From assembly GCF_017348835.2 (NCBI RefSeq), contig NZ_CP071375.1: a stretch of 64,000 nucleotides of DNA. One strand, given 5' to 3'. The notes beneath the pieces are model-generated. The model saw only the letters and a program-made list of their open reading frames with translations. It was not told the DNA's origin and made no database searches. Positions within the stretch are counted from its first letter, which is position 1. Each line of letters begins with the position of its first letter. A program made the position numbers and the translations under genes. Origin of the DNA: Escherichia coli. GTDB lineage: Bacteria; Pseudomonadota; Gammaproteobacteria; Enterobacterales; Enterobacteriaceae. Below, in pieces: positions 14,440-16,203 of this stretch.

Positions 14440-14513
14440 CCGTTTTCTCCATGCGATGGAGTGAGAATGCATCCGCTTACTCATCCACTGCCTGTCACGG
14501 CGCATGTCTCATT

Positions 14514-14546
14514 GTTAGATAAGAACTCTCTCACTCCGGCCAGAGC
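14514..14546 (+). repeat. 33-nt segment in the dinQ leader (gttagataagaactctctcactccggccagagc). Its complement in dinQ mRNA is the antisense target of AgrB (31/33 match with agrB, poorer with agrA).
   Basis: Direct sequence comparison with the two full-length agr copies at 15814-15897 and 16045-16127. Confidence 0.7.
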
Positions 14547-14630
14547 ATCAGTTAACGGCACCACCCGTACTTCTGACCAGGACTTTGAAAGCGTTTATGC
14601 GCATTACCAGAGTGAAAATGCCTCAGAGCT

Positions 14631-14650
14631 AACTGGATAATCATACAGTA
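14631..14650. promoter_or_regulatory. LexA (SOS) box AACTGGATAATCATACAGTA overlapping the dinQ promoter (minus-strand -10 TATAAC, -35 TTACAC)
   Basis: CTG-N10-CAG palindrome matches the LexA consensus TACTGTATATATATACAGTA. Minus strand has TTACAC-N15-TATAAC immediately upstream. Confidence 0.65.
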
Positions 14651-14699
14651 CATTCAGGTTATAAAACCAGCATGTCCTGTGTAAGTTCACAGAGATATT

Positions 14700-15818
14700 G
14701 CAATTGCCTCCGGATAAGTAAGGGGAGATTGCACTATGCAAATGCAGCATCTGATGGTTGGCTATCCTAAGTACTACCAAACGGCCGATTATGCGTTGAG
14801 GCTTTCAGTGATGGCTGATATAGCAACAATGAGAATGAAGGCTCTGCACTTCTGGGATAAACACGGTATTTCTGCAGCTTCTGAAGCCTTTGGCGTGTCC
14901 TGCCGCACGCTTTACTGGTGGCGTCAGTTACTGAACAAGGAAGGACCTGAGGGGCTAATCCCGCACAGTAAGGCACCTCTGGTGCGACGAAAAAAACACT
15001 GGCATCCCGATGTGCTGAAAGAGATTCGACGCCTCAGGACAGAGCTGCCGAACCTCGGTAAAGAGCAGATTTTTGTTCGCCTGAAGCCCTGGTGCGAACA
15101 GCGCTATCTGGCCTGTCCGAGTGTTTCCACCATCGGCAGAATGATCGCTGCCGCACATGATAAAATGCGGATGATACCTGTGCGTCTGGGATCGCGGGGG
15201 AAGGCACTGCTTGTCAAAAAGCGGTCTGCCAAACCCCGCAGGCCAAAGCACTACCGCCCGGTAAAGACAGGTGAGCTCATTGGGATGGACGCCATTGAGC
15301 TCAGAATGGGCGAACTGCGTCGCTATGTCATCACCATGATCGACGAATGCAGCAATTACGCGCTGGCGCTGGCTGTGCCGTCACTCAACAGTGATATCGT
15401 CAATCACTTCTTCAGCCGCGCAGCCCGGTTGTTCCCGGTCGGTATCAGCCAGATAATCACAGATAACGGAAAAGAGTTCCTGGGAAACTTCGACAAAACG
15501 CTGCAGGAAGCCGCTATCAAACACCTCTGGACCTATCCCTACACGCCAAAAATGAACGCTATCTGTGAACGTTTTAACCGGACGTTAAGAGAGCAGTTTA
15601 TTGAATTTAATGAGATTTTACTCTTTGAAGATCTGGCGCTATTTAACCAGAAGCTGGCGGAATATCTGGTGCTGTATAACAGCAAAAGACCCCACAAGGC
15701 GCTCGCACTAATGACGCCCGTGGAATATATTTTAAAAGAGAATAAAAATTGCAATATGTGGTGGACCCATACATGTCCTTGCAATAGTTTCAGTATGGTA
15801 TTAGCATTGATGCGTTAG
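14700..15818 (+). mobile_element. IS481-family-like insertion sequence (~1.1 kb, single transposase ORF). Ends are approximate and the terminal inverted repeats were not resolved.
   Basis: About 1.1 kb of extra DNA between the dinQ promoter and agrA relative to the conserved gor-dinQ-agrAB layout. It is occupied almost entirely by a DDE/rve transposase ORF. Short direct similarity CATGTCCT..TGCAAT at 14673-14709 and 15771-15787. Confidence 0.55.
14736..15818 (+). CDS. DDE (rve/integrase-core) transposase of IS481/IS3-superfamily type. N-terminal HTH, TDNGKEF motif, E..R(+7), YNSKRPHKAL.
   Basis: 360-aa ORF. The motif D..TDNGKEF..ERFNRTLRE..YNxxRPHxAL is typical of IS481/IS3 DDE transposases. 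The stop codon TAG lies inside the first nucleotides of agrA (gcgTTAGat). An internal start (MRMKALHF, 14829) is possible. Confidence 0.75.
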   Translation: MQMQHLMVGYPKYYQTADYALRLSVMADIATMRMKALHFWDKHGISAASEAFGVSCRTLYWWRQLLNKEGPEGLIPHSKAPLVRRKKHWHPDVLKEIRRLRTELPNLGKEQIFVRLKPWCEQRYLACPSVSTIGRMIAAAHDKMRMIPVRLGSRGKALLVKKRSAKPRRPKHYRPVKTGELIGMDAIELRMGELRRYVITMIDECSNYALALAVPSLNSDIVNHFFSRAARLFPVGISQIITDNGKEFLGNFDKTLQEAAIKHLWTYPYTPKMNAICERFNRTLREQFIEFNEILLFEDLALFNQKLAEYLVLYNSKRPHKALALMTPVEYILKENKNCNMWWTHTCPCNSFSMVLALMR

Positions 15819-15897
15819 ATGATGGCATTCTCACTCCAGCCAGAGCCACCAACTCTGGGCTGCAAAGTAAAAAACCGACGCAAAGTCGGTTTTTTTA
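15814..15897 (+). ncRNA. agrA: AgrA-like small RNA. Diverged 5' half, shared 3' half, and terminator ccgacgcaaagtcgg + T7.
   Basis: About 84-nt repeat homologous to the copy at 16045-16127. Ends in an intrinsic terminator. Its 5' half (gttagatgatggcattctcactcc) differs from the dinQ target at multiple positions. Confidence 0.6.
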
Positions 15898-16044
15898 CAT
15901 CCGGATTCGGACAAGGCTTAATATGACGATGACCCAGTGAAAGTATATAAATCGTCACTGCGATATATACCGAAGTGCCCCCTCCGCCAGCTGAAGAAAT
16001 CGCTAATTCTTGCAATGTTAGCCACTGGCTAATAGTATTGAGCT

Positions 16045-16127
16045 GTTAGATAAGAGCTCTCTCACTCCAGCCAGAGCCACCAACTCAGGGCTGGAAAGTA
16101 AAAAACCGACGCAAAGTCGGTTTTTTT
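16045..16127 (+). ncRNA. agrB: AgrB small RNA, antisense regulator of dinQ (near-perfect complement of the dinQ leader segment at 14514-14546)
   Basis: gttagataagagctctctcactccagccagagcc... plus terminator. 31/33 identity to the plus-strand copy in the dinQ leader, so it is complementary to dinQ mRNA. Confidence 0.65.
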
Positions 16128-16203
16128 ACGTCCTGATTCAGACCTCCTTTCAAATGAATAGCCAACTCAAAATTCACACCTATTACCTTCCTCTGCACCT
16201 ACG

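Follow-up and report, generated by a model that had tools for sequence, protein, structure and literature searches.

Insertion sequence IS481 prefers NCTAGN targets. The present work deals with a 1,096-bp insertion sequence (IS) of the same family, which lies between the promoter of the type I toxin gene dinQ and the small RNA gene agrA in a 64,000-nt stretch of an Escherichia coli genome (assembly GCF_017348835.2, contig NZ_CP071375.1; hereafter the window, with positions counted from its first letter). Elements IS481 and IS1002 of Bordetella resemble it by their single open reading frame (ORF) encoding a DDE transposase, their N-terminal helix-turn-helix (HTH), their TGT...ACA ends and their length of ~1 kb (PMC10045372). 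Target duplications in family IS481 measure 2-15 bp, mostly 6 (PMC10045372), while those of the clade considered here, composed of the E. coli element, ISKpn28 and more distant relatives, are 5 bp long and phased to the -35 hexamer of promoters.

ISKpn28, from plasmids and chromosomes of Klebsiella pneumoniae, was encountered in about 1,500 Klebsiella plasmid records. It has the same length of 1,096 bp, likewise lacks an internal stop codon and displays identical terminal sequences, which are thus conserved despite an overall identity of only ~75 % at the nucleotide and ~80 % at the protein level. Usual ISfinder practice assigns copies to the same IS above 95 % DNA or 98 % protein identity; ISKpn28 is accordingly a relative only, and the transposase of the window element falls into a different 90 % protein cluster (2,164 members). 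In plasmid pJYC04A, ISKpn28 occupies the same hok/sok position as the E. coli element, its right flank reading CCTCC followed by the -35 hexamer TTGCAA and its left flank ending in TCTCC, so that the duplication matches at four of five positions. A preprint reported the co-localization of ISKpn28 with FlmC (hok/sok) in plasmid leading regions, which was left unexplained there (PMC12248084).

The closest behavioural precedent is the ISAba32 subgroup of family IS1202, which is related to IS481. According to the paper describing it (bioRxiv 10.1101/2022.12.17.520857), insertions are oriented and abut a protein-bound site at the distance of a direct repeat of 5-6 bp; many sites are involved, several related ISs behave alike, the mechanism was given as unknown and a 'safe haven' role was proposed. 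The searched text makes no mention of stop or termination codons. The target there is a dif-like XerCD site and not a promoter, and it is abutted by the left (transposase-proximal) end, whereas in the present clade the right end faces the target.

Ty3, Ty1 and Dictyostelium TRE are eukaryotic retrotransposons, in contrast to the present clade of bacterial ISs, for which there is a candidate protein partner only. Ty3 integrates at Pol III start sites, Ty1 and TRE upstream of tRNA genes, all at a fixed short distance upstream, in a gene-sparing manner and mediated by transcription factors. IS150 and IS186 are likewise associated with hok/sok, but belong to other families; their insertions, reportedly described by Pedersen and Gerdes in 1999, are said to inactivate the chromosomal hok loci of E. 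coli K-12, and they are not known to be phased to the Sok promoter.

The insertion in the window is very probably a recent one, made by an active IS481-family element related to ISKpn28, and its site is probably explained by homing of this clade to promoters of the sigma-70 type. A reading made from the letters of the window alone (the sequence-only reading) had considered the segment as inserted rather than ancestral DNA and had placed it between the LexA-controlled dinQ promoter and agrA. Both points were borne out by alignment with K-12: the reconstructed empty site was contiguous in 4,603 out of 5,426 complete E. coli genomes, and seven of the 5,426 carried the IS at this very site. The element and its surroundings are composed as follows.

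14673-14677, no strand: left copy of the target-site duplication, TGTCC (a single TGTCC in the empty site of CFSAN061763, which shares the haplotype of the window; K-12 has CGTCC)
14678-15773, + strand: IS481-family insertion sequence, 1,096 bp, with TGT...ACA termini (delimited by empty-site comparison and by identical copies at unrelated loci)
14678-14705, + strand: left inverted repeat (IRL), TGTGTAAGTTCACAGAGATATTGCAATT, with core ATATTGCAATT perfectly complementary to 15747-15757
14736-15818, + strand: transposase ORF of 360 amino acids, codons 1-346 within the IS, 14 more codons and the stop from flanking DNA
15747-15773, + strand: right inverted repeat (IRR), ...AATTGCAATATGTGGTGGACCCATACA; the end of the IS is a codon boundary, ACA being Thr346
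15774-15778, no strand: right copy of the target-site duplication, TGTCC, directly before the agrA -35
15779-15807, + strand: agrA core promoter, -35 TTGCAA at 15779-15784, 17-nt spacer, -10 TAGCAT at 15802-15807, same as in K-12

The segment 14650-15830 first proposed for the element did contain it, yet only approximately; its exact limits are 14678-15773. Its termini read TGTGTAAG...CCCATACA, and searches with the end patterns found them to be unique within the window. IRL and IRR match at 20 out of 28 positions with one gap and share the perfect 11-nt core ATATTGCAATT. A direct similarity, 'CATGTCCT..TGCAAT', had also been pointed out. It is real, but it was rejected as a pair of terminal repeats: it is made up of the target duplication, extended at the IS tips by a chance match of one or two bases, and TGCAAT reflects the chance resemblance between the IRL core TTGCAAT (14698-14704) and TTGCAAT at the agrA -35 (15779-15785).

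The view that this is a single-ORF, IS481-like DDE element with an rve domain was upheld by the transposase, which displayed an HTH as well as the Pfam domains rve (E=5e-11) and rve_3 (E=3.5e-14), and catalytic residues D185, D243 and E278 forming a DD(35)E triad. It matched the NCBIfam model transpos_IS481 with E=1.7e-65 and 221.4 bits, slightly below the curated cutoff of 224, the runner-up being IS3 with 98 bits. An rve-type DDE transposase, a single ORF, a length within 0.95-1.3 kb, TGT...ACA tips and a short duplication are thus united as in family IS481, and the Prokaryotic Genome Annotation Pipeline (PGAP) names the identical protein 'IS481 family transposase'. No stop codon is present inside the IS; the transposase stop is the TAG at 15816-15818, which corresponds to positions +2 to +4 of agrA, in agreement with the earlier observation of a stop in the first bases of that gene. 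A search of solved structures with the transposase returned retroviral integrase cores only (E~1e-3 to 1e-4) and was uninformative on target choice.

No convincing promoter for the transposase emerged from a promoter scan, the sole match (14612-14641, + strand) lying within chance expectation. This match (GTGAAA, 18 nt, GATAAT) is weak; it shares positions with the LexA box and is directed at the IS. A junction promoter with a -35 in IRR and a -10 in IRL, as in copy-out/paste-in ISs, was considered and rejected, because the 19-20 bp that separate the TTGCAA motifs from the tips are too long a distance.

Among the strains carrying the IS at the dinQ|agrA site, IAL7255 displayed CGTCC on both sides of the element, while the window, PE164, EC12 and FWSEC0007 displayed TGTCC on both sides. 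Both alleles also exist as empty sites (CGTCC in K-12, TGTCC in CFSAN061763). A point mutation would affect only one of the two duplicated copies; the same nucleotide was therefore struck at least two independent times and in the same orientation. The exact 360-amino acid product, whose tail is specific to the site, was found on 59 contigs in public assemblies. In strain Z1323CEC0015, the copy at this site is frameshifted, with 5 nt missing from its left junction and 4 nt from the right duplication (1870-1880 and 2960-2972 in the numbering of that locus), owing either to decay or to an assembly error.

The element was present in 1,222 out of 5,426 E. coli genomes, on chromosomes and plasmids, in up to 38 places per genome. 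Junctions were gathered from exact-pattern scans of IMG/VR and metagenome contigs, from annotated E. coli and plasmid records, and from transposase variants with different C-terminal tails. As end patterns of 14-15 nt gave mostly chance matches in IMG/VR, a locus was retained only when BLAST with the complete IS had confirmed it; a search of one-genome-per-species contigs with the transposase yielded just four fragmentary loci and was of little use. Flanks with at most 12 differences in their first 50 nt (24 % divergence) were clustered together, which resulted in 29 site families representing this IS, ISKpn28 and relatives at non-homologous sites.

The right flanks uncovered a common pattern of 5 nt, a TTG[A/C][A/C]A-like hexamer, ~17 nt and TAnnnT. 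TTG occupied positions +6 to +8 in 17 of the 29 families, as against 1.7 % of window positions (P=3e-23), and a -10 with A2 and T6 at exactly 17 nt was displayed by 12 of these 17 TTG sites, with a background of 6.8 % (P=5e-11); the left flanks, used as a mirror-image control, gave 0 out of 27. When a -10 position weight matrix was applied with spacers of 16-18 nt, 15 of the 17 TTG sites exceeded the 95th percentile of the TTG-anchored background (P=4e-18). Of the 12 families with other -35 hexamers (e.g. TTTACT, GTGACA, TGGAAA), five likewise exceeded this percentile, having a strong and suitably spaced -10 (P=2e-4). Spacers were of 17 nt in 16 families, 18 nt in three and 16 nt in one, as in natural promoters. 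A perfect 5-bp duplication was observed in 12 of the 20 families in which both flanks could be compared, and 11 of these 12 were promoter-like. The repeated, oriented insertion at a fixed distance from a motif that characterizes site-specific ISs was thereby encountered in the 29 families, in the two hits on the agrA promoter (PagrA) and in the use of one hok/sok position by two ISs. Selection after random insertion cannot explain this promoter-adjacent, oriented pattern, because a comparable -10 accompanies only ~5-7 % of TTG positions and because the copies, being 99-100 % identical, are recent.

Two kinds of deviant copies were also noticed. A ~93 % identical copy is fixed in many avian or ColV plasmids, among them one of the IncF ColV type in which it lies next to iss, without target duplication or promoter-like right flank; it is probably old and rearranged. 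On several E. coli chromosomes, truncated copies consisting of the first 669 bp only adjoin a gene of the H-NS family, and the matching fused protein with H-NS and HTH domains has 635 members.

Individual loci illustrate the range of targets. Copies 100 % identical to that of the window were found beside hokD, beside a hok gene on a plasmid and, at a further locus, upstream of yhjE. In E2348/69, a copy between iap and cysH has its left end 5 bp from the hok start codon, and its right flank (ATGTC, TTGCCT, 17 nt, TAACAT) is the Sok promoter region. Rfam matches to sok abut the IS end at four loci; at hok/sok loci the insertion splits the hok ORF from its own promoter and leader and spares Sok. 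The E. coli element and ISKpn28, which are 75 % identical, occupy the same position in homologous plasmid hok/sok loci, and these two insertions must be separate events. Descent of every hok-linked copy from a single old insertion was considered and discarded, as the IS copies are 99-100 % identical but their flanks highly diverged, and as two ISs share the position.

Strains resembling E2348/69 carry a second DinQ-family locus (1134-2668 in its own numbering), situated between an FtsX-domain gene and selU, with a DinQ-family ORF (Pfam PF28061) and a divergent AgrB-family small RNA (Rfam, 53.6 bits). The flank of the IS reads GCTGT, TTGAAT, 17 nt, TATAAT, the small RNA starts 8 nt past this -10, and the transposase is a 348-amino acid form ending at the TGA of TTGA. 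An Rfam match to ES036 (CssrF) was found near this locus, and another at 5896-5936 of the window. Further copies, all of them co-oriented, precede yhjE and yegH by 60-70 bp or lie upstream of avtA; the flanks at avtA and yhjE are promoter-like by sequence, that at yegH is not. ISKpn28 was also found in a prophage-like contig between Rfam matches to isrJ and STnc100 (5859-7313 of that contig) with flank GAGCA, TTGAAA, 17 nt, TAAATT, a site family recurring in 17 contigs. The targets are real promoters, because PagrA was mapped experimentally (PMC3567139), because the sok matches abut the IS and because an AgrB-family small RNA starts at the second DinQ-family locus.

Six relatives with 43-46 % protein identity, from Acidithiobacillus caldus and metagenome genomes, all displayed a right end in ...CATACA. 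The left end, TG(C/T)ATAAGTTC, was located in three of the six; the last 5 nt of the left flank were repeated at the right in two of these, and the third also has a 5-nt repeat. Four of the six inserted as follows.

A. caldus relative: GAGCC, TTGAAC, 16 nt, TAATCT, upstream of trxA-rho
Relative: CAATC, TTGACG, 16 nt, TATAAT, upstream of xseB
Relative: AACTC, TTGACG, 17 nt, TACCCT, upstream of a radical-SAM gene
Relative: CCCTA, TTGACA, 16 nt, TATAAT, on a short contig without a downstream gene called

The transposase ORFs of these four relatives stop at the TGA of the -35 hexamer, and the insertions at trxA-rho, xseB and the radical-SAM gene have the orientation of the downstream gene. The other two relatives matched the rule more weakly. 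Among 93 representatives of clade clusters, 33 end two residues past a conserved W-W-T-H-T terminus, the stop being the third codon, 25 have Cys at the third position after it, and TG occupies +7/+8 in 62 %. A stop-less ORF and insertion next to a -35 are therefore old and linked traits. The sequence-only reading had treated the position of the IS and its borrowed stop as peculiar to dinQ/agrA; both turned out to be general properties of the clade. As a consequence of the missing stop codon, databases contain read-through fusions of 400-570 amino acids with downstream genes (H-NS, UmuC-like and permease domains), and PGAP labels other copies 'incomplete, missing C-terminus'.

The following mechanism is proposed. 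A staggered cut of 5 bp is made directly upstream of the -35 hexamer, with the right end of the IS and the reading direction of the transposase always facing the promoter. As the IS is stop-less and ends on a codon boundary, a TTGAnn target is read NNN NNT TGA, and the promoter itself supplies the stop of a 348-amino acid protein. With a TTGCnn target, as in PagrA and the Sok promoters, TGC encodes Cys and translation continues to the next stop. The target in the window was the constitutive agrA promoter, with the TTGC-type outcome and the TAG at +2 to +4 of agrA as next stop. There is about an even chance that the transpososome captures promoter DNA to which RNA polymerase holoenzyme is bound, on the side of sigma region 4 and the C-terminal domain of the alpha subunit (alpha-CTD); integration would then occur at the upstream limit of the DNA contacted by sigma region 4, near -41/-36. 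The fuller proposal, in which a widespread clade (ISKpn28, the E. coli element and relatives from Acidithiobacillus and other bacteria, with identities as low as ~43 %) homes to promoters occupied by sigma-70 RNA polymerase, the holoenzyme recruits the transpososome for integration at -41/-36 in one orientation, and the TGA of TTGACA evolved as stop, is put forward tentatively, at somewhat less than even odds.

Recruitment by RNA polymerase was favoured because it would account for the joint need for a -35 and a -10, the natural spacers, the tolerance of degenerate -35 hexamers accompanied by a good -10, and the preference for strong constitutive small RNA promoters. Alternatively, the transposase itself might read a -35-like hexamer through its inverted-repeat-binding domain, the motif lying ~20 bp inside each repeat, without any role of the polymerase; the -10 would then be enriched since accessible TTGACA-like hexamers tend to be promoters. 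The insertion point is indeed fixed relative to the -35 and not to the -10 (spacers of 16-18 nt), both the E. coli IS (ATATTGCAATT) and distant relatives (TTTGGCAC) have a -35-like motif in the inner part of their repeats, the geometry is that of the ISAba32 subgroup with its direct-repeat distance from XerCD sites, and intragenic insertions occur (hlyA, mgrB). A preference for three or four bases, however, cannot explain a strong -10 in 15 of 17 TTG and five of 12 non-TTG sites, with a comparable -10 at only ~5-7 % of the TTG positions of the window, and the accepted variants TTTACT, GTGACA and TGGAAA match TTGACA degenerately, in the manner of sigma-70 and without fixed bases; direct reading, the next most likely mechanism, is plausible but less likely than not. 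A predilection for some feature of type I toxin-antitoxin loci (hok/sok, dinQ/agr) instead of promoters in general could be suspected from the many antitoxin small RNA promoters among the sites (at least five diverged hok/sok loci, agrA and the AgrB-like small RNA of the second DinQ-family locus) and from the co-localization of ISKpn28 with FlmC in plasmid leading regions (PMC12248084). The same phasing is nevertheless observed upstream of avtA, yhjE, trxA-rho, xseB and the radical-SAM gene, as well as next to a plasmid NleG effector gene and the prophage small RNA STnc100, and the -35/-10 pattern is the sole sequence common to the targets, which makes this reading very improbable. That an ordinary IS without meaningful target choice landed by chance between dinQ and agrA, and was kept as harmless, would agree with the rarity of this insertion (seven out of 5,426 genomes) and the integrity of all genes and both promoters. 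It is hardly credible in view of the at least two independent insertions at the identical nucleotide in the same orientation, of target statistics with P = 1e-11 to 1e-28 and of the 0/27 of the left-flank control; domination by a few inherited sites is opposed by clustering at 24 % divergence and by the involvement of two different ISs.

Several points weigh against promoter homing, or against the part given in it to RNA polymerase. Four to six of the 29 families have no promoter-like flank, although most of these may be rearranged, lacking a target duplication. Insertions of the ISKpn28 type are known inside hlyA and in mgrB at +91. Experimentally known transcription starts cover few of the targets, and the sample (complete E. 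coli genomes, plasmids, IMG/VR and metagenome contigs) was opportunistic and not an unbiased transposition library. The present data do not separate recruitment by RNA polymerase from direct reading of DNA; the latter is in keeping with the -35-like sequence inside the inverted repeats, which is TTGCAA or, in distant relatives, TTGGCA. Finally, the literature on IS481, ISKpn28 and IS target specificity contained no description of promoter or -35 targeting, but ISfinder and TnPedia lay outside its coverage and may already record such a rule.

The locus hit in the window is the gor-dinQ-agrA-agrB-ars region of E. coli, as indicated by its DinQ ORF, LexA operator, two divergent AgrB-family small RNAs, leader complementarity and placement between gor and ars. 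Positions 14300-16300 are 100 % identical to the pig isolates PE164 and F2_81, and the annotation of PE164 across the region reads gorA, dinQ, 'IS481 family transposase' and arsC. Besides the features given above, the region comprises the following.

14356-14439, - strand: dinQ coding sequence, 27-amino acid type I toxin (ORF; annotated as dinQ, WP_001295215.1, in the 100 % identical PE164)
14514-14546, - strand: segment of the dinQ mRNA leader complementary to the 5' ends of AgrB/AgrA (by alignment, 31/33 identical to the + strand agrB region)
14631-14650, - strand: operator for LexA in the dinQ promoter, reading TACTGTATGATTATCCAGTT on this strand (CTG-N10-CAG motif, same as in K-12)
15815-15898, + strand: agrA small RNA (Rfam RF02891, 100.3 bits, full length)
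15869-15895, + strand: agrA terminator hairpin, within the agrA small RNA
16010-16038, + strand: agrB promoter (TTGCAA, 17 nt, TAGTAT), unoccupied by the IS; a start 7 nt downstream fits the Rfam match
16046-16129, + strand: agrB small RNA (antitoxin), intact (Rfam RF02891, 108.1 bits; alignment)

In K-12, the agrA promoter comes straight after that of dinQ. LexA operators overlap the -10 and -35 of dinQ, the agrA promoter is consensus-like with a mapped start site, and AgrB and AgrA act as antisense RNAs toward the dinQ leader (PMC3567139). The agrA +1 at 15815, 7 nt past the -10, agrees with the K-12 annotation and with the Rfam start. The exact dinQ -35 would be that placed from the transcript length of ~330 nt given in PMC3567139; it is kept under any reasonable placement, because the LexA operator and all DNA on the dinQ side as far as the duplication are unchanged. 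The 5 bp used as target amount to the spacer that separates the dinQ and agrA promoters, which lie back to back, so that both core promoters survive and now stand 1.1 kb apart.

According to the sequence-only reading, the IS had displaced the agrA promoter, leaving agrA either silent or driven by an outward promoter of the IS, with altered control of DinQ. The PagrA DNA upstream of about -41 was indeed swapped for the right end of the IS, the LexA-bound dinQ promoter was shifted 1.1 kb away, and transposase transcripts should enter agrA, as there is no terminator before 15869. The supposed replacement of the promoter was contradicted, however, by a -35, spacer, -10 and +1 identical to those of K-12, and no outward-facing promoter (no -35/-10 pair) was seen in the right end of the IS by sequence reading and a promoter scan. 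AgrA is moreover a weak antisense RNA with little part in DinQ control in K-12, AgrB being the effective antitoxin (PMC3567139), and agrB is intact. Altogether, a displaced agrA promoter is very unlikely. Two other statements fared better: agrB is untouched, as indicated by its Rfam match, and the 31/33 complementarity between agrB and the dinQ leader at 14514-14546 was found correct by alignment. As agrB and both core promoters are intact, the control of DinQ is probably little changed. Transcription of the transposase gene should proceed into agrA and stop at the agrA terminator. Subtle effects are possible through the loss of whatever coupling there was between the divergent promoters and the neighbouring LexA operator, through a transposase mRNA with AgrA sequence at its 3' end, or through the 14-residue C-terminal extension of the transposase.

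Some strain differences were observed around agrB. Compared with K-12, agrB of the window has an A-to-G change at about +11 and hence two mismatches to the dinQ leader instead of one (16046-16078 versus 14514-14546). Further downstream (16229-16304), arsR and arsB are deleted, the junction 16241|16242 joining post-agrB DNA to the last ~48 nt of arsB; arsC (16305-16730) follows this remnant. The arsRB deletion is common to PE164 and EC12, whereas arsRB is kept in IAL7255 and FWSEC0007. In EC12 and FWSEC0007, the IS is followed on its 3' side by a single hybrid agr gene, with an agrA-type promoter and 5' antisense segment on agrB-type downstream DNA; the well-matched antisense region of AgrB appears to have been lost there through recombination between agrA and agrB. 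Elsewhere in the window, Rfam matches to the shuA/chuA thermoregulator (23197-23228), ES205 (32901-32972) and GadY (38751-38864) fit the acid-fitness-island/chu neighbourhood of E. coli.

By itself, the dinQ|agrA insertion is a minor polymorphism between strains, in which an element of a known kind occupies a new site. The targeting rule seems not to have been described so far, and its significance depends on experimental confirmation. If true, promoters would join the short list of specific IS targets, such as repetitive extragenic palindromic (REP) elements, attC, xrs and attTn7, transposition would be linked to the transcription machinery in a way testable by simple assays, and the clade would provide a bacterial counterpart of promoter targeting of the Ty3 type. 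The rule explains an annotation problem, namely the transposases labelled 'incomplete, missing C-terminus' and the fusions of 400-570 amino acids. The oriented, gene-sparing and promoter-proximal integration could become a genetic tool. The hok/sok position, inspected in one Klebsiella plasmid (pJYC04A), would if common be relevant to the addiction and stability of plasmids. The -35 of real promoters is marked by copies of the clade, also at unannotated small RNAs and antitoxins such as the AgrB-like small RNA of the second DinQ-family locus, and such copies could serve for the discovery of promoters and small RNAs; if the rule is true, they would naturally indicate active promoters and would particularly favour the strong promoters of type I antitoxin small RNAs.

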